This document shows, in pieces, positions 3,006 to 36,208 of a DNA stretch of 64,000 bases. Position numbers and translations under genes: made by a program. The DNA comes from Actinomycetota bacterium (GTDB lineage: Bacteria > Actinomycetota > Acidimicrobiia > Acidimicrobiales > Ilumatobacteraceae), in the NCBI GenBank assembly GCA_037141855.1, contig JBAXBR010000003.1, forward strand, positions 8,707 through 72,706. The letters run 5' to 3'. The first letter of the stretch is position 1; every line of letters begins with the position of its first letter. The notes under the pieces are model-generated. The model was not told the DNA's origin and made no database searches. It saw only the letters and a program-made list of their open reading frames with translations.

Positions 3006-3717
3006 GTTCGCAGTTATGAAAATGGCTAGTTGGCGACTGGCAGTAGTCGCATTCTCCAATTACTGCTGCTGACGGGCTGAATTCCAGATTTAGACGTGCA
3101 TCGAACACGTATAACGAACCTTCCCACAGACCTCTGTCGCGGTATTCCTCGCCGTAGCGAACGATGCCACCTTCAATTTGGTAGATCTCTTTAAATCCAC
3201 GGTTTTTCATGATGAGTGACAACACTTCACAGCGGATTCCGCCGGTGCAGTAAGTGATGATGGGTTTGTCCTTTATGTGGTCGTATCTACCACTCTCTAA
3301 CTCAGCTATGAAATCACGAGTTGATTCGGTTTGTGGAACGATTGCGTCGCGGAATTTTCCAATCTTTGCTTCGAATGCATTGCGACCATCGAAGAAGACA
3401 ACATCCTTGCGGGAGGCAACAAGCTCGTTCACCTCTTTGGGTTGTAGATGAATGCCACCACCGACGACACCATTCTCATCGACAACGATTTCGTCGGGAA
3501 CCCCAAATGTCACAATCTCGTTTCGCACCTTGACGAGCAAGTCGGGGAAGTCGTCTTTACCACCATTGGACCATTTGAATTCCATGGCCTTAAAGGCTGG
3601 GTAACTGCGCGTTACTCGGATGTATTTCTTTACCTTGTCAATAGGTCCGCCAACTGTGCCATTGATGCCGTGCTTGGAAATGAGAATACGCCCGTGCAAA
3701 CCAAGTCCTTCACACAA
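2905..3717 (-). CDS. trhO: Rhodanese-domain tRNA uridine(34) hydroxylase TrhO (UPF0176/YceA family); the true start is probably upstream of 3717
   Basis: [20 protein letters not shown], the rhodanese loop YCTGGIRCE and a C-terminal Cys cluster. The frame stays open to 3807 and encodes the conserved ...[25 protein letters not shown] before the TTG at 3717, with no ATG/GTG/TTG in that segment. Confidence 0.8.
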
Positions 3718-3835
3718 TGCACGCTGCCAAAGTCGTATGGCATCAGGGTCGCCAATTGGCGTGAACTTGTAATACAGGAGAATTTTAGAGGTACTTATGT
3801 GATTAGTTTATACGCTGTTTATATGGCGATTTGTT

Positions 3836-5932: not shown

Positions 5933-7468
5933 ATGAAAGTTCCATTAACTGTCGTAGATCACCTGCGTCGTGCAGAACAGGTGTACGGCCATCGCATTGC
6001 GTTCATCGACGAGCCCGATCAGCCTGCACAATCCTGGGGTACGCAGACCTACGCAGAAATGGCAAGACGGGCACGCGCACAAGCTGCAGCCTTAGACAAA
6101 TTGGGCGTTGCCCAAGGTGCCCGGGTTGCAGTAGTCAGTCAGAATTCGGCTCGGCTACTCACCAGTTTCTTTGGAGTGAGTGCTTACGGGCGCATTCTTG
6201 CTCCAATAAATTTTCGGCTTTCAGCGGAAGAAGTTGGCTACATCGTTGAGCATTGTGGCGCTGAAGTGCTGATTGTCGACCCTGAGCTTGAAGATTCGCT
6301 CAAAAATGTTTCTGCCAAACATCGTTTCGTCATCGGAGCGGAAAGTGATGAATTGTTGTACGACTATTCCGCAGAGCCACGGTCGTGGACGCCAGACGAA
6401 GATGCAACTGCGACGATCAACTACACCAGTGGTACTACTGCAAGGCCTAAAGGTGTCCAATTGACCCACCGCAATATTTGGTTGAACGCAGCAACGTTTG
6501 GTTGGCACATGGGAGTCAATGATCGCGACGTCTACCTGCATACTCTTCCCCAATTTCATTGCAATGGTTGGGGCATGGTGTACGCGGTTACCGCGATGGG
6601 TGGAACTCATGTTGTGCTTCGCAAAGTTGATGGAGCGGAAATACTTCGTCGTGTGGATCAACACGGAGTCACCTTGTTGTGCGGTGCTCCTGCTGTAGCA
6701 AATGCGATCATTGATGCTGCACATCAATTCGATTCTGGAGTTCCCGGCCGAGGAACCGTTCGTATGGTGGTTGCAGGTGCTCCGCCACCGTCTAAGACCA
6801 TTGAGCGTGTGGAGGTTGAGCTCGGTTGGCAGTTCAATCAGATCTACGGCCTAACCGAAACATCGCCGGTGCTCACCATTAATCGCCCATGTGCAGAAAC
6901 AGATGCATTAACTGTCGCGCAACGGTCTGTGGTGTTAAGTGCTGCAGGCGCGCCAACCTTGGGAACGGAAATTACAACTGACAGTTCTGGCGAAGTACTT
7001 GCCCGAAGCAATGTGGTGATGGACGGGTATTGGAATCAGCCAGAAGAGACTGGTAAAGCAATCGTGGATGGCTTCTTTCATACCGGAGACGGAGGAAGTG
7101 TCGGAGGCAGTCATGTTTTGACGATCAGCGATCGCAAAAAAGATGTCATCATCTCCGGTGGAGAGAATGTCAGTTCGATTGAGGTGGAAGATGCATTGTT
7201 TTCACATCCCGATGTCACCGAAGTTGCTGTCATTGGCATTCCAGATGAGAAATGGGGCGAATTAGTGATGGGTCTCGTAGTGAAGACTCCAGATTCAACG
7301 CTTTCGGAAGAAGAATTGATTGCTTACTGCCGAACCAAAATCGCTGCATATAAATGCCCCAAGAAGGTGGAGTTCAGGCTTGAGCTTTCACGAACAGCCA
7401 CAGGAAAATTACAGAAGTTCAAACTCCGTGCTCCATATTGGGACGGCTACACAAAGCAGGTGAATTGA
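5933..7468 (+). CDS. Acyl-CoA synthetase / AMP-dependent ligase
   Basis: AMP-binding motifs YTSGTTARPKGV, YGLTE, GDGG and the C-terminal ...GKLQKFKLR. Confidence 0.9.
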   Translation: MKVPLTVVDHLRRAEQVYGHRIAFIDEPDQPAQSWGTQTYAEMARRARAQAAALDKLGVAQGARVAVVSQNSARLLTSFFGVSAYGRILAPINFRLSAEEVGYIVEHCGAEVLIVDPELEDSLKNVSAKHRFVIGAESDELLYDYSAEPRSWTPDEDATATINYTSGTTARPKGVQLTHRNIWLNAATFGWHMGVNDRDVYLHTLPQFHCNGWGMVYAVTAMGGTHVVLRKVDGAEILRRVDQHGVTLLCGAPAVANAIIDAAHQFDSGVPGRGTVRMVVAGAPPPSKTIERVEVELGWQFNQIYGLTETSPVLTINRPCAETDALTVAQRSVVLSAAGAPTLGTEITTDSSGEVLARSNVVMDGYWNQPEETGKAIVDGFFHTGDGGSVGGSHVLTISDRKKDVIISGGENVSSIEVEDALFSHPDVTEVAVIGIPDEKWGELVMGLVVKTPDSTLSEEELIAYCRTKIAAYKCPKKVEFRLELSRTATGKLQKFKLRAPYWDGYTKQVN

Positions 7469-30964: not shown

Positions 30965-32881
30965 TTAGATGGACCTAAGAAATTGCACTACTTCAGAAAA
31001 ATCGATAGTCCGTTTCATTGGCGGCAGTGTTGATACAAGTTTCTTTCCATAACCCTTCGTTGCAAGACGTGGGTCAAGGATGGCAACGACTCCTGTGTCT
31101 TTGCGCGAGCGGATCAATCGACCAGCGGCCTGTGCTAACTGTGTTGCAGCGAGTGGAATGTCAATTTCATTGAACGACGTACTACCGATTTCTTCGCGTC
31201 GTGCACTGAGCAAAGGATCATCTGGTCGAGGAAACGGAATTTTGTCAATAACAACGAGACTGAGTGTTTGGCCAGGAACATCAACACCTTGGAAGAATCC
31301 TGCAGTTGCAAACAGGCAGGCAGAATCTTCAGCAGCAAACGCGTCAACAAGGGCCATTTTTGGCAGGTCGTCCTGACGCCAGATTTTAAATTTTAGTCGT
31401 TGTGCCATTTCATCGGCTGCGGCGTGCATGGCGCGATATGTGGTGAACAGTGCAAGGGTGCGACCGTGGGCGGCGTTGATGAGTTTCTCAAGTTCGTCAT
31501 GAACGGCGTCATCTCTGCGGGATTCATTCGGCAAAGGAAGATGTTTCGCGCAATACAGAAGCGCTGAGTTTTCGTAATCAAATGGGCTGCCGACGTCGAT
31601 TGCATTCACCTCGTCGTCCTCGAGTCCGATACGCGAAGGCATTGCTAGGGGAATAGTGGCGCTCGTAAGGATTGCGGTTCGTTTTGACCAGACGCCTCCA
31701 CGCAGCGATGGACCAACATTGAGGGGTGCGAGTTCAAGGACAGGCCGTTCCTTGGTGCCACTCACGAAGGCAACAGTTCGTGATCCAGCGGTGAGAGATC
31801 CATCGATCACGTCGATCATTCGACCGCTTAAAGTTTGACCCCGAAGGATTCGCTGTTTGGCAGTTTCATCGCTACTAGAGATTGATTTCAACCCCGATAT
31901 TGCCTCATCGATTTTGAGACGCAAACGAGCAAGTACGTCTTGGATGTCATCAGGCAGAGGCAGAGGAACGCGTTTATCGACATCACCAGCAATACATCCA
32001 CCAAATTCAGTGGCCAATTGTTGAAGGGAACCAGTTAACCCGTCATCTCTTACGATTGCGCGCAGTGCGCCGATTACGTGTTGGATGCTTCCTGGGCTAA
32101 TTGACATGCTGACTGAAGCACTCATCACGTCTTCAAGTTGGTGAGCTTCATCGAATATGACCACATCATGTTCGGGAAGCAATGCACCGTCGGTAGCGAC
32201 ATCCAGACCGTAGATGTGAGTATTCACCACAATCACGTCGGCGACCGCGGCGAAATCGCGAGCGCGCTCCGCAAAGCATGTGTCTCCGGCAGGGCATCTA
32301 CTCGCACCAGGGCATTCGTCGCTGCCAATGCTGACATGGCGCCATGCGGCATCGCGAGGGCTCCACGACAAATCACCAGCATCACCAGTTGAGGTGGTTT
32401 CAGACCATGTCACAAGCTTGTCGATATCTGACTTCACCTGAATGCTGAAATCTTGCAAATCAAGCTTGTGCTGTTTTGGCTCGCGAATTTCGGCGATGCG
32501 TTGCGCGCAGAGGTAATTGTTGCGACCCTTCAGAACTGCCCAGGTGATTTCGCGCCCGATGATTGGAGCAAGCGCAGACGACAACACAGGAAGATCGTGC
32601 TTAGCAAGTTGATCCTGCAATGCCTTTGTATACGTCGAAACCACGATTCGTTTTCCCGATGCAATTGCAGGAACGAGATAGCCAAGCGTCTTTCCCGTTC
32701 CAGTACCAGCTTGAACGATGAGGTGGCGACCTTGTTCGATCGCGTCGGCAATCGCATTTGCCATGGTTACTTGTCCTGAACGCGACTCCACATTTGGGAG
32801 CGTGTCAACGACTGCCTGCAAGAGGACTTCGACGTCAACTTCGTTGTTCGGTTTACCTGACATGCACCAACTTGAGTGCAT
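30965..32881 (-). CDS. dinG: DinG/XPD-family ATP-dependent DNA helicase with an Fe-S domain
   Basis: Walker A AGTGTGKT, DEAH box (FDEAHQLE), and a Cys cluster (LCAQ, DECPGASRCPAGDTC). Alternative start at ATG 32863. Confidence 0.85.
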   Translation of the reverse strand: MHSSWCMSGKPNNEVDVEVLLQAVVDTLPNVESRSGQVTMANAIADAIEQGRHLIVQAGTGTGKTLGYLVPAIASGKRIVVSTYTKALQDQLAKHDLPVLSSALAPIIGREITWAVLKGRNNYLCAQRIAEIREPKQHKLDLQDFSIQVKSDIDKLVTWSETTSTGDAGDLSWSPRDAAWRHVSIGSDECPGASRCPAGDTCFAERARDFAAVADVIVVNTHIYGLDVATDGALLPEHDVVIFDEAHQLEDVMSASVSMSISPGSIQHVIGALRAIVRDDGLTGSLQQLATEFGGCIAGDVDKRVPLPLPDDIQDVLARLRLKIDEAISGLKSISSSDETAKQRILRGQTLSGRMIDVIDGSLTAGSRTVAFVSGTKERPVLELAPLNVGPSLRGGVWSKRTAILTSATIPLAMPSRIGLEDDEVNAIDVGSPFDYENSALLYCAKHLPLPNESRRDDAVHDELEKLINAAHGRTLALFTTYRAMHAAADEMAQRLKFKIWRQDDLPKMALVDAFAAEDSACLFATAGFFQGVDVPGQTLSLVVIDKIPFPRPDDPLLSARREEIGSTSFNEIDIPLAATQLAQAAGRLIRSRKDTGVVAILDPRLATKGYGKKLVSTLPPMKRTIDFSEVVQFLRSI

Positions 32882-33587
32882 TGGTTATCTCTTGCGCGTC
32901 GAAATCTGGCCAGGTTCGTTCGGTGAAGTACACCTTGGCGCCCATGATTTGCCACAGTAAGAAATTTGAAATTCTCGATTCACCAGAAGTTCGAACTACA
33001 ACATCTACTGGAGGTAGTTCTGGCGCGTACAAGTTCTGAGATATGTCTTGAGACGAAACATCGTGCGATGTTTGGTTCTGCGAATGTGCGCGCTGTGCTG
33101 CACGGAGGAGTTCGGCGCGACTGCCATAATCGAAAGCGACGGTGAGCACCATGCCTGTGTTGTGTGCCGTATCTTCTATGGCTTGCAGAATTGCTCGCTG
33201 AATAAATGCTGGAGTTTTGGATCCAGGCTCATCGAACGGACGACCAATCCATTGGATCCGAACATTATTGGCATTCAGCTCTTCGATTCTCCCAAACAGA
33301 CGCTTGTGGAGAGAAAGAATGTGTTTAACCTCGGCTGGAGGACGTACCCAATTTTCCGTTGAAAACCCGAAAACGGTCAACCAGCCAACATTGTTCTTGG
33401 CGCAGATACGCACTACCTCGGCCAAATTTTCTTCTCCGGCAGTATGTCCAGCGGTTCGTGGGAGGCCACGACGTTTAGCCCATCGTCCGTTGCCGTCCAT
33501 GATGCAAGCGATATGCACAGGAGAGTCGCTGGTTGCCAAGTCCATGGCGAACACCTTACTGATGTGAGCCCTGAAGTCGTGCGACAA
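32853..33587 (-). CDS. uppS: cis-Prenyltransferase (undecaprenyl-diphosphate synthase family), catalytic-type paralog lacking the C-terminal RxG
   Basis: IMDGNGRWA, FGFSTENWVRP and RTSGESRISNFLLWQ. The protein ends ...ALKLVHVR-stop. Alternative start at ATG 33545, preceded by AAGGTG. Confidence 0.9.
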   Translation of the reverse strand: MSHDFRAHISKVFAMDLATSDSPVHIACIMDGNGRWAKRRGLPRTAGHTAGEENLAEVVRICAKNNVGWLTVFGFSTENWVRPPAEVKHILSLHKRLFGRIEELNANNVRIQWIGRPFDEPGSKTPAFIQRAILQAIEDTAHNTGMVLTVAFDYGSRAELLRAAQRAHSQNQTSHDVSSQDISQNLYAPELPPVDVVVRTSGESRISNFLLWQIMGAKVYFTERTWPDFDAQEITNALKLVHVR

Positions 33588-33594
33588 TGGTGAC

Positions 33595-34164
33595 GTGGCT
33601 AACGGATCATCATTACGACATGTGCTCGTAGTTGGTGGATCGCTGGAGCAATGGAATTCAATGTCTGAGTTGGACTGGTCTCAGTACATTTCAACCTTGC
33701 AAACCTCGGTAGAACAGGTTGATGCGCAATGGCTTTCGATTTATCCGTATTCTGGTACAAGTTTTAGCGAAGACGTCAGTGAGTTAACACAAAAGATTTC
33801 GCTTGCCTGCGGTGCAGTTGTTGAAGATGACAAGTTGATGCTTCGCGGTTCAACCTCGGTAGTGATCGATGTATGCGCAGATGGACAGCAACGATTTACG
33901 CGTGCAGTTAACGGTCTGCCGCATAACAAGATTTCGGAAAAGAACCTGGCGACCGCGATTTTGCACCCAGCGTCGAGCGAACCAGACCTTGTTGTTATTT
34001 TTGGAGACCCCACGCAGTTGCCACCTTCACTCGTTTGGGAACTCGCATACAGCGAGCTGGTGTACCTGAATACACAGTGGCCACATTGCAACGGTGAAGA
34101 TATTGATTTGGCGATTAATGACTTCCAACGCAGAGACCGTCGATTCGGCGGTGTGGATTCATGA
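33595..34164 (+). CDS. Degenerate UPPS-like protein that has lost the catalytic motifs but keeps the C-terminal RRFGG
   Basis: Aligns end to end with the neighbouring UppS: RHVLVVGGSLEQW vs VHIACIMDGNGRW, and PDLVVIFGDPTQLPPSLVWELAYSELVYLNTQWP...RRDRRFGGV vs VDVVVRTSGESRISNFLLWQ.... GTG start. ATGA overlap with recO. Confidence 0.7.
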   Translation: MANGSSLRHVLVVGGSLEQWNSMSELDWSQYISTLQTSVEQVDAQWLSIYPYSGTSFSEDVSELTQKISLACGAVVEDDKLMLRGSTSVVIDVCADGQQRFTRAVNGLPHNKISEKNLATAILHPASSEPDLVVIFGDPTQLPPSLVWELAYSELVYLNTQWPHCNGEDIDLAINDFQRRDRRFGGVDS

Positions 34165-34880
34165 CGCTCTATCGCGATAAAGGCATTGTGTTGAGAAGTT
34201 ACAAGCTCGGGGAATCTGATCGCATAGTGGTGATGATGACTGAACACCACGGAAAAATTCGGGCAGTGGCTAAAGGTATTCGTAAAACAAAATCGAAGAT
34301 TGGCGCTCGACTCGAACCTATGAGTCATGTAGACGTTCTGCTGTATAAAGGAAGAGAACTCGACACCGTGTCGCAGGTGGAGTTGATCGATTCGTCGGCA
34401 CGATTACACAACAACCTCGACAAGTTGACGCAAGGAATGTCAATGCTGGAGGCAGTTGATCAAATTGCGGAAGACAGAGAATCTTCGCCGCACCTGTATC
34501 GAATGCTGCAAGGCGCATTAAATGCGTTAATGGAGCAGGAATCACCGGTGATGCTTGCTGCCTTTTACTGGAAGTTGTTGGCTGCTGAAGGTGTGAGTCC
34601 ACAGGTGCAGTCGTGTGTTGGGTGCGGTTCGTTAACCGACTTGGTGGCGTTCGATATTTTCCAGGGCGGTGTTCAGTGTCGGTCTTGTCGGACTGGTATC
34701 AGTATTTCTCAACCAGCAATTGATTTATTGCAGCAGGTGTTGGGAGGGCAACTCAATGTTGCACTTGTGCAGCCCGAATCTCCAGCAAGCTACGAAATAT
34801 CGCAACTCGCAACTCAAGCGATGGAATATCACACCGAACGGCGATTGAGATCGGTAGCAATGTTCAGTCCCCGTCACTAG
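34161..34880 (+). CDS. recO: DNA repair protein RecO
   Basis: N-terminus MTLYRDKGIVLRSYKLGESDRIV and zinc-finger cysteines (CVGCGS...CRSC). Confidence 0.9.
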   Translation: MTLYRDKGIVLRSYKLGESDRIVVMMTEHHGKIRAVAKGIRKTKSKIGARLEPMSHVDVLLYKGRELDTVSQVELIDSSARLHNNLDKLTQGMSMLEAVDQIAEDRESSPHLYRMLQGALNALMEQESPVMLAAFYWKLLAAEGVSPQVQSCVGCGSLTDLVAFDIFQGGVQCRSCRTGISISQPAIDLLQQVLGGQLNVALVQPESPASYEISQLATQAMEYHTERRLRSVAMFSPRH

Positions 34881-34900: not shown

Positions 34901-36208
34901 ATGCCAGCGAGCGATTTAGAGCAAATAGTCAACCTCTGCAAGCGGCGCGGCTTTGTATATCCAAGCGCTGAAATCTATGGCGGGTTCCGTTCCTCGTATG
35001 ACTATGGTCCGCTTGGATCCCTCATGCTGCGCAATGTGAAGGATGCGTGGGTGCGCAGCATGGTGCAACAGCGAGACGATGTCGTTCTGATTGATGCAGC
35101 AATTCTTGGACCCCCGCAGGTTTTCGAGGCAAGCGGACACCTCGCTAATTTCAGTGATCCGCTCGTCGATTGCACGGTATGTAAAAAGCGGTTCCGCGAA
35201 GATCAGCTGGACGCACGCGACTGTCCTCAGAAAATGAAGGGATGTGCGTTTACTGAAGCTCGCGCATTCAACTTGATGTTCCAGACACATGCCGGCCCAG
35301 TCGAGGGCGAAGGTGCAACGGTCTATATGCGTCCTGAAACTGCACAAGGAATGTTTGTGAACTTCGCAAACGTGTTGCAGACTTCGCGTAAAAAACCGCC
35401 ATTTGGCATCGCTCAGGTTGGGAAAAGTTTCCGAAACGAAATTACTCCTGGAAACTTTATTTTTCGAACTCGTGAATTCGAACAAATGGAAATGGAATTC
35501 TTCGTTCCACCAGCAGATAGTGCGAAGTGGTACGAGTACTGGTGCGAGACGCGCATGCAGTGGTATATCGATTTGGGAATTCCAGCAGACATGTTGCGTT
35601 TGCGTGCGCACGATGCCGACGAACTTTCTCATTATTCGAGTGGTACGAGTGACATTGAATTCAAGTTTCCGTGGGGTTGGGGAGAGCTTGAGGGAATTGC
35701 ACAACGCACGAATTTCGACCTCAATCGGCATGCCGAGTTTTCGAAACAGAAGCTTGATTATTTTGATCAAGCAACGAATGAGCGGTATGTGCCATATGTA
35801 GTGGAACCTGCAGCTGGAGCTAACCGCACCATGGCTGCATTCTTGCTTGCCGCATACGACGAGGACATCGTGAACGACGAACCACGTACCGTTCTCCGTT
35901 TGCACCCTCGATTGGCTCCATACCAGGTGGCCATTTTGCCGCTGTCGAAAAAGGACACCCTCACACCGTTGGCCGATCAAATTTTCTCGCGGTTGAGTAA
36001 ACGCTATTACTGCGATTACGACGAAACCCAAGCAATCGGACGGAGGTATCGTCGCCAAGACGAAATCGGCACTCCGTACTGCATCACGGTCGATTTTGAT
36101 TCTCTAGAAGATGGTCAAGTGACCATTCGGGAACGCGATACGACACAGCAAGAACGAGTTTCCATCGACCAACTCGAACAGATTCTCAGTGAAAAATTAG
36201 GGTTCTAA
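34901..36208 (+). CDS. glyQS: Glycine--tRNA ligase (dimeric class II type)
   Basis: LCKRRGFVYPSAEIYGG, FRNEITPGNFIFRTREFEQMEMEFF and YVPYVVEPAAGANR. Confidence 0.93.
   Translation: MPASDLEQIVNLCKRRGFVYPSAEIYGGFRSSYDYGPLGSLMLRNVKDAWVRSMVQQRDDVVLIDAAILGPPQVFEASGHLANFSDPLVDCTVCKKRFREDQLDARDCPQKMKGCAFTEARAFNLMFQTHAGPVEGEGATVYMRPETAQGMFVNFANVLQTSRKKPPFGIAQVGKSFRNEITPGNFIFRTREFEQMEMEFFVPPADSAKWYEYWCETRMQWYIDLGIPADMLRLRAHDADELSHYSSGTSDIEFKFPWGWGELEGIAQRTNFDLNRHAEFSKQKLDYFDQATNERYVPYVVEPAAGANRTMAAFLLAAYDEDIVNDEPRTVLRLHPRLAPYQVAILPLSKKDTLTPLADQIFSRLSKRYYCDYDETQAIGRRYRRQDEIGTPYCITVDFDSLEDGQVTIRERDTTQQERVSIDQLEQILSEKLGF

Follow-up and report, generated by a model that had tools for sequence, protein, structure and literature searches.

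The divergent gene pair lying between a DinG/YoaA-like helicase gene and recO in a member of the Ilumatobacteraceae raises the question whether two incomplete cis-prenyltransferases can make up one complete enzyme. The pair is located in a stretch of 64,000 nucleotides (nt), hereafter the window, from a freshwater Actinomycetota bacterium (assembly GCA_037141855.1, contig JBAXBR010000003.1, positions 8,707 to 72,706). Gene A (32853..33587, minus strand; longest open reading frame (ORF) 244 amino acids (aa)) encodes a cis-prenyltransferase of the undecaprenyl diphosphate synthase (UPPS) type that is devoid of the C-terminal RxG motif, and gene B (33595..34164, plus strand, 189 aa) encodes a catalytically dead paralogue that retains it and is proposed to be an RxG-donating accessory subunit. 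On the basis of the analyses described below, we consider it likely that A and B are the subunits of an independently evolved heterodimeric cis-prenyltransferase, in which the tail of B would complete the active site of A.

Gene A matched both the PF01255 and the TIGR00055 profiles. The PF01255 score was 226.5 bits (E=3.8e-67, gathering score 27) and the alignment covered profile positions 1-209 of 219, the missing last ten or so positions indicating the loss of the RxG-bearing end. The best solved relative of the protein was the Thermobifida fusca enzyme 7CPN (E=1e-50). Region I (IMDGNGRWA, 33477..33503, minus strand), which includes the catalytic Asp as well as the P-loop that binds the allylic diphosphate, and region V (RTSGESRISNFLLWQIMGAK, 32934..32993, minus strand), whose residues binding isopentenyl diphosphate (IPP) are intact, were both recognised in the translation. 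Conservation was assessed on 80 loci fetched from Ilumatobacteraceae (acIV) genomes, which provided 71 complete A genes and 75 B genes, and residues were called by alignment to E. coli UPPS, whose numbering is used throughout. All 71 A genes keep D26, G27, G29, R30, W31, R39, H43, F70, S71, E73, N74, W75 and R77 together with R194, E198, R200, S202 and N203, region I being invariant except for N28, which is kept in 70 of the 71.

The C-terminus of A is without RxG across the family. The protein ends with ...ALKLVHVR followed by a TAA stop codon (32853-32855), and the 29 nt shared with the 5' end of the helicase gene (32853..32881, minus strand) leave no space for an RxG tail. A search for [R/N]xG in the last 20 residues returned no hit in any of the 71 complete A genes. 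The tail beyond the last helix is variable in sequence and length and often stops directly after the helix, so that A does not hold a substitute motif for RxG. Although the TIGR00055 score (207.8 bits) exceeds the cutoff of 109.55, the absence of RxG in 71/71 genes sets A apart from the self-sufficient enzymes of this UPPS equivalog. Within region V the usual Y-A/S-E is changed to G-A-K, with G at position 211 in 63 of 71 genes and K or R at position 213 in 40; the literature searched for the role of E. coli Y211 and E213 gave nothing usable, and the meaning of the change is inferred from its position in the interface linker. The ratio of nonsynonymous to synonymous substitution rates (dN/dS) of A was 0.05 among the closer genomes. 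The initial annotation, made from the sequence alone, had described a UPPS with all its catalytic and substrate motifs, a modified Y-A/S-E and no RxG, cut short by a helicase gene starting inside its last codons; each quoted motif was found in place, and the combination of intact catalytic residues with a missing RxG extends to the 71 orthologues.

The product of gene B reads HVLVVGGSLE, IFGDPTQLPPSLVWELAYSELVYL and RRDRRFGGVDS. The second of these stretches (33997..34068, plus strand) is a degenerate region V that corresponds to the predicted betaE-betaF linker at the dimer interface, retains Y-S-E and carries the WELAYSELVF signature of canonical Acidimicrobiales UPPS, and the third includes the RxG motif R183-F184-G185 (34141..34149, plus strand). 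The PF01255 match of B (46.7 bits, E=3.7e-12, profile positions 116-219) exceeds the gathering score, thus placing both proteins in the cis-prenyltransferase superfamily as first surmised; the TIGR00055 score of 35 bits is under the cutoff and the catalytic residues are gone, so that B falls outside the UPPS equivalog. B had been reported to align with UPPS along its whole length, which proved correct with the B family profile (E=2e-24, profile positions 10-187 on residues 11-246 of E. coli UPPS) and with the predicted structure, whereas single-sequence hidden Markov models (HMMs) aligned the C-terminal half alone.

The substrate pocket of B is destroyed in a uniform manner. All 75 B genes have G at D26, a deletion over R39, I, V or L at R194 and P at S202, R30 is replaced by E or Q in 72 of them and E198 by P in 59, and about 35-45 residues are missing over the helix alpha-3 region. 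The same 75 genes keep W207, Y211, E213, R239 and R241-R242-F/Y243-G244, and the spacing of RxG from the W-E motif is collinear and ungapped with respect to E. coli UPPS. Two clusters of conserved residues were defined on the B protein. The first occupies the predicted betaE-betaF linker and consists of G137, P143, W148, E149, L150, A151, Y152 and E154, all invariant or nearly so and W148, E149, Y152 and E154 strictly invariant, and the second is the tail itself (R180 and R182 to G186). Database entries annotate A as a plain uppS, and B as "hypothetical protein" or as "undecaprenyl diphosphate synthase family protein".

Several data indicate that B is a functional protein under purifying selection, with a predicted UPPS-like fold. 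The reading frame is intact in all 75 genes assessed, and dN/dS among the closer genomes was 0.10, with values of 0.175 for the degenerate N-terminal part and 0.046 for the C-terminal part. AlphaFold2 modelling with a 42-sequence alignment returned a mean predicted local distance difference test (pLDDT) value of 91.2 and a predicted template modelling (TM) score of 0.87, and a Foldseek comparison of the predicted fold with the PDB listed UPPS-type members of the cis-prenyltransferase family in all of the top 50 matches (TM 0.6-0.68 over 210-240 columns). Only residues 181-189, which include the RRFGG tail, dropped to a pLDDT of about 54, in line with a tail that becomes ordered upon complex formation and not before.

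The partition of motifs between the two genes was absolute in the related genomes: each of the 75 B genes has RxG and lacks the catalytic Asp, and RxG is missing from every one of the 71 complete A genes. The complementary loss proposed for the window is thus invariant across about 70 genomes. The gene order is conserved as well, since the arrangement dinG<-A<-|->B->recO recurs in the fetched loci, the conserved cores of the two genes being separated by a median of 143 nt, and by less than 250 nt in 62 of 69 loci. In the remaining 7 loci 0.7-2.3 kb of extra DNA lies between A and B, as in L016 (A 3017-3802, B about 6000-6561). Even a distant member (P0180, about 38% identity) has the same arrangement with an RxG-less A. 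Overall, 826 relatives of B were retrieved from the databases, all from freshwater or other environmental assemblies. In a scan of a genome collection, relatives of B were present in 215 species-level genomes whose record names are Ilumatobacteraceae, acIV or Acidimicrobiia. The acIV lineage is abundant in freshwater metagenomes.

The significance of this partition can be appreciated from the known role of RxG. The solved structures, those of homodimeric enzymes included, show the RxG tail reaching across the dimer interface to the active site of the partner chain. In that site the IPP beta-phosphate is held by the backbone amides of x and G, and the Arg contacts a Mg2+-bound water. The Gly contacts Arg-85 of DHDDS, which aligns to R77, a residue kept by A. 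Substitution of this Gly abolished function both in E. coli UPPS (G244A) and in the Giardia enzyme (G238A), and the kcat of the DHDDS homodimer is about 400 times below that of the DHDDS/NgBR complex. The betaE-betaF linker has been described as part of the dimer interface in the human complex. Since the pocket of B is gone (D26, R30, R39, R194, E198 and S202), an invariant and canonically spaced RxG is plausible only in trans, and A is the likely recipient because it is the only nearby chain with a pocket and no tail, R77 and all IPP-binding residues being kept.

According to the proposed mechanism, A would provide the only working active site, with the catalytic Asp, the P-loop and the arginines binding farnesyl diphosphate and IPP, and would be unable to close this site by itself for want of a C-terminal RxG. 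B would maintain the UPPS-like fold and the dimerisation surface, i.e. the betaE-betaF linker and its flanking helices, with its own pocket destroyed. Its flexible RRFGG tail would reach over the dimer interface into the site of A and there bind the beta-phosphate of IPP as well as the Mg2+-bound water, as NgBR does for DHDDS and the partner monomer in homodimeric UPPS. The product would be a polyprenyl diphosphate lipid carrier, probably C50-C55. The pair would have originated inside Bacteria, the resident recO-linked uppS decaying into B after a uppS of another lineage, the present A, had come to lie head-to-head with it. Formation of the heterodimer, donation of the tail in trans, dependence of the activity on B and the nature of the product are all inferred from sequence; a physical A:B complex receives indirect support from the conserved interface segment and the conserved adjacency of the two genes.

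The features that define a heteromeric cis-prenyltransferase in functional terms are a catalytic subunit with active-site residues and no RxG, as found in A, an accessory subunit with the fold, no catalytic residues and a conserved C-terminal RxG, as found in B, and a physical complex whose activity depends on both chains, as predicted for the pair. The same organisation is known from human DHDDS/NgBR (NUS1) and from yeast, where Rer2 or Srt1 combines with Nus1. In these systems the catalytic chain has regions I-V and lacks RxG, like A, and the accessory chain combines a cis-prenyltransferase fold and a dead pocket with a C-terminal RxG that completes the site of the partner, as proposed for B. 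Using human sequences checked against the PDB chains, the stretch RTSGESRISNFLLWQIMGAKVYF of A was matched to a DHDDS counterpart likewise without RxG, and EPDLVVIFGDPTQLPPSLVWELAYSELV...DRRFGG of B to an NgBR counterpart that ends ...EQRLGK. In both accessory chains R-T-S-G-E has become K/I-F-G-P/D, and in both the human and the Ilumatobacteraceae systems the Glu of Y-x-E survives only in the RxG-bearing chain. The division of labour with DHDDS/NgBR that had been suggested for this locus therefore corresponds residue by residue.

This likeness does not extend to a close relationship. The single B sequence gave no match to NgBR or Nus1 at E<=1, and the B profile scored 1.6e-5 with NgBR and 0.087 with Nus1 as against 2e-24 with E. 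coli UPPS, which leaves B outside the NgBR/Nus1 family. The conserved core of B, first strand included, begins at about residue 7-9 of 189, leaving no room for an N-terminal membrane-binding extension of the NgBR/Nus1 type. Since the profile scores favour E. coli UPPS and the membrane anchor is missing, B is, as judged from its sequence, an analogue of NgBR related at the family level only, and the resemblance is convergent. Unlike the eukaryotic pair, A also lacks the C-terminal helix-turn-helix of DHDDS, and the expected product is of medium chain instead of dolichol length.

Two-component enzymes have also been described in archaea, namely MA3723/MA4402 of Methanosarcina acetivorans, MM_0618/MM_1083 of M. 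mazei and Af1219/Af0707 of Archaeoglobus fulgidus. Compared by their published description only, they resemble A/B in being prokaryotic, in combining an RxG-less subunit with an RxG-bearing, NgBR-like one and in their product, a C45-C55 glycosyl-carrier lipid; they differ in being euryarchaeal and in having accessory subunits grouped with NgBR/Nus1, whereas B derives from a bacterial recO-linked uppS. Homodimeric UPPS enzymes (E. coli IspU, M. tuberculosis Rv2361c, T. fusca 7CPN) resemble the pair in fold, and have both the catalytic residues of A and B's tail. In these enzymes each chain carries both functions, whereas the A/B split would leave one active site per dimer.

The origin of B could be traced by comparison with other Acidimicrobiales. 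A follow-up search recovered 99 complete UPPS sequences with D26, RTSGE and RxG, and those with a named source came from Acidimicrobiales or from unclassified Actinomycetota. Genomes encoding a complete enzyme (L086, L087) have the order dinG(-) | uppS(+) -> (small ORF) -> recO -> ... glyS, confirming that the recO neighbourhood is the usual site of uppS in these bacteria, with the helicase as the divergent neighbour of uppS itself. In Ilumatobacteraceae B occupies the uppS slot and A lies between B and dinG. The signature PDPDLVV...LLWELAYSELVF is common to B and the complete enzymes of Acidimicrobiales, and A has instead PPVD...LLWQ, like E. coli. In a neighbour-joining tree, which carries no support values and is exposed to long-branch effects, B fell beside the complete Acidimicrobiales enzymes and A outside. 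Taken together, the shared locus, which carries the most weight, the clade signature and the tree grouping indicate that B is the degenerated resident, recO-linked housekeeping uppS of Acidimicrobiales. As the same locus holds a single complete UPPS in related Acidimicrobiales, the housekeeping gene has been replaced by the A and B pair in Ilumatobacteraceae. From its sequence we conclude that A is probably a second copy of a different lineage, either an older paralogue or a transferred gene, which would have taken over catalysis and lost its own tail.

A less degenerate type of dead UPPS, here called B2, was detected in both the representative and the follow-up searches. B2 proteins of about 220-260 aa read HVAWVAGGS.RWA ... 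WEVAYSELVF ... RRDRRYGGL, share the PDPDLVV...LLWELAYSELVF signature and group with B in the tree. The genes (L082:359-1042, L084:10001-10702 and L088:10001-10792) belong to high-GC Acidimicrobiales (73% GC in L082) and occupy the recO-linked uppS slot. B2 has the appearance of a transitional form from the complete enzyme to B.

Because A is placed between dinG and B, its origin from the resident uppS by inverted tandem duplication was also considered. It was set aside on account of the PDPDLVV/LLWELAYSELVF signature of B and B2 as against PPVD and LLWQ in A, and it is disfavoured by the placement of A outside the clade in the neighbour-joining tree, with the same reservations on support and long branches.

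Some observations weigh against a heterodimeric A/B enzyme. No A-like gene was found within 10 kb of B2, so the A-B adjacency is not universal. All members come from metagenome-assembled genomes, and no cultured organism with B was present among the ten representative clusters that were looked up. The DNA examined comprised the 64-kb window and about 12 kb of each related genome, with room for a further complete uppS elsewhere. Finally, MM_0014 of Methanosarcina mazei, a catalytic chain without RxG like A, works as a homomer. This last enzyme and the B2 genes devoid of an adjoining A, together with the retention of every other catalytic residue in A, lend some credit to the idea that A is a self-sufficient homodimeric UPPS working without RxG and that B is a pseudoenzyme with another job such as regulation, scaffolding or lipid binding. 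We regard this explanation as unlikely. MM_0014, which performs unusual chemistry (C- and O-prenylation), closes its site by a conserved TLGG substitute, whereas the tail of A shows no conservation and in many cases does not extend past the last helix. Moreover, loss of RxG function abolishes or strongly lowers the activity of homomeric enzymes, and the invariant RRFGG at canonical spacing and under strong constraint in a protein with a dead pocket would be left unexplained.

It can also be imagined that A:B heterodimers do form and that B acts mainly as a regulator of activity or chain length, or as a poison subunit, without being an obligatory activator. The dimer-interface segment is the most conserved part of B, NgBR has been described as an allosteric modulator besides its role as RxG donor, and the residues lost by B over helix alpha-3 belong to a region that shapes the product tunnel. 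Still, an inhibitory subunit would not need an invariant RxG of the catalytic type, and an A:A dimer with no RxG source of its own would have little activity to be down-regulated, which makes a mainly regulatory B very improbable. Many actinobacteria carry two cis-prenyltransferases, e.g. Rv1086 and Rv2361c, and with only part of each genome covered A/B might be a specialised extra system for another polyprenyl product, a normal uppS elsewhere making the peptidoglycan carrier. This appears distinctly unlikely, as B has the signature (WELAYSELVF, PDLVV) of the one complete uppS present in related Acidimicrobiales and sits at precisely its locus, which indicates that the housekeeping gene itself has degenerated, and no other PF01255-like ORF besides A and B was detected in the 64-kb window or in the fetched flanks. 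The last explanation, that B is a decaying pseudogene or the short end of A a sequencing or assembly artefact, could appeal to the score of B under the equivalog cutoff and to its label as a hypothetical protein. It is effectively refuted by the intact frame of B in 75 genes, its dN/dS and its confident fold prediction, and by the identical end positions of A in 71 independent assemblies; the assembly error that had been named as a possible cause of the truncation is contradicted by the recurrence of the pattern in all the A and B genes.

Full-text literature searches did not return any heteromeric cis-prenyltransferase in Bacteria, in agreement with the initial annotation. Papers from 2017 to 2026 report heteromeric enzymes only in eukaryotes, Methanosarcina and Archaeoglobus and describe the bacterial ones as homodimeric. 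For the heteromeric form, an origin in Euryarchaeota is favoured in one recent paper. The mechanism is already known; what would be new is its occurrence in Bacteria, its separate origin there and an accessory subunit that is soluble and minimal. We find it on balance probable that an obligate two-subunit enzyme was independently invented in Bacteria, by conversion of uppS into a pseudoenzyme that lends its RxG to a tail-less copy in convergence with DHDDS/NgBR, so that the essential lipid carrier of peptidoglycan in these organisms needs two genes, with a less degenerate form persisting in other Acidimicrobiales.

If the A/B enzyme works as proposed, the splitting of catalytic site and RxG over two chains would be a recurrent outcome of this fold and not a single event on the way to eukaryotes. 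The pair would offer a clean natural case of transition from a homodimer to an obligate heterodimer by complementary degeneration, with the intermediates still present in related genomes as complete enzyme, then B2, then B. It would also supply a small soluble model of the heteromeric enzyme without a membrane anchor, suited to the study of the tail in trans and of relevance to human disease mutations, namely NgBR R290H and those in DHDDS. The annotation of B as hypothetical or UPPS family protein, and of A as plain uppS, would have to be corrected.

The remaining features of the locus concern the boundaries and the neighbours of the two genes. The region 30965-34880 consists of four genes, namely the DinG/YoaA-like helicase, A, B and recO. 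A gap of 7 nt between A and B had been reported and holds for the longest possible ORFs. The start of A is more probably the ATG at 33545, corresponding to the conserved Met15, which gives a 230-aa protein and widens the spacer between the probable A and B starts to about 49 nt (33546..33594), a short divergent spacer also indicated by the conserved-core distances. In the region 33568-33680, the window allows B a length of 189 aa at most, whereas gene callers assign 196-220 aa to its homologues (P0001-P0120), and the frames of A and B, when read from stop to stop, run into each other on the two strands. Where either gene starts is thus uncertain, and the true distance between the divergent genes is very short, which would be compatible with leaderless transcripts. 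A consensus scan of 33300-33900 for promoters and terminators gave nothing above background.

The helicase gene (30965..32881, minus strand; NF053712 match, E=1.4e-152) lies downstream of A and is part of the conserved neighbourhood. Its ORF start at 32881 is 29 nt inside the end of A, or 11 nt with the second Met of the helicase as its start, and short overlaps of this kind are typical of related loci. On the other side recO (34161..34880, plus strand) encodes RecO_N and RecO_C domains (TIGR00613, E=2e-43), and, as previously noted for this locus, the B stop and the recO start share the 4 nt ATGA at 34161-34164; the same 4-nt overlap, as ATGA or GTGA, occurs in 54 related loci. With the helicase on one side and recO on the other, cell-wall lipid genes and DNA-repair genes are tightly interleaved. 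Some predicted proteins are hybrids: in P0194 the N-terminus is that of RecO and the C-terminus is of B type, and in P0210 the C-terminal half of a UPPS precedes the C-terminus of RecO. Frameshifts or faulty assembly where the genes overlap are the probable cause.

In other Acidimicrobiales a short ORF (86-120 aa), for which Pfam gave no match, separates uppS or B2 from recO (L084:10699-10959, L086:8723-8998, L088:10789-11094 and L082:1039-1401). It overlaps both neighbours by 4 nt and is absent in the window, where B meets recO directly. In the L082 copy, what looks like a membrane segment precedes a low-complexity repeat of Ala, Glu and Asp. Beyond recO, the window holds a 435-aa ORF at 34901-36208, whose position matches that of the glyS-like class II tRNA-synthetase gene (tRNA-synt_2b and HGTP_anticodon domains) of related loci.

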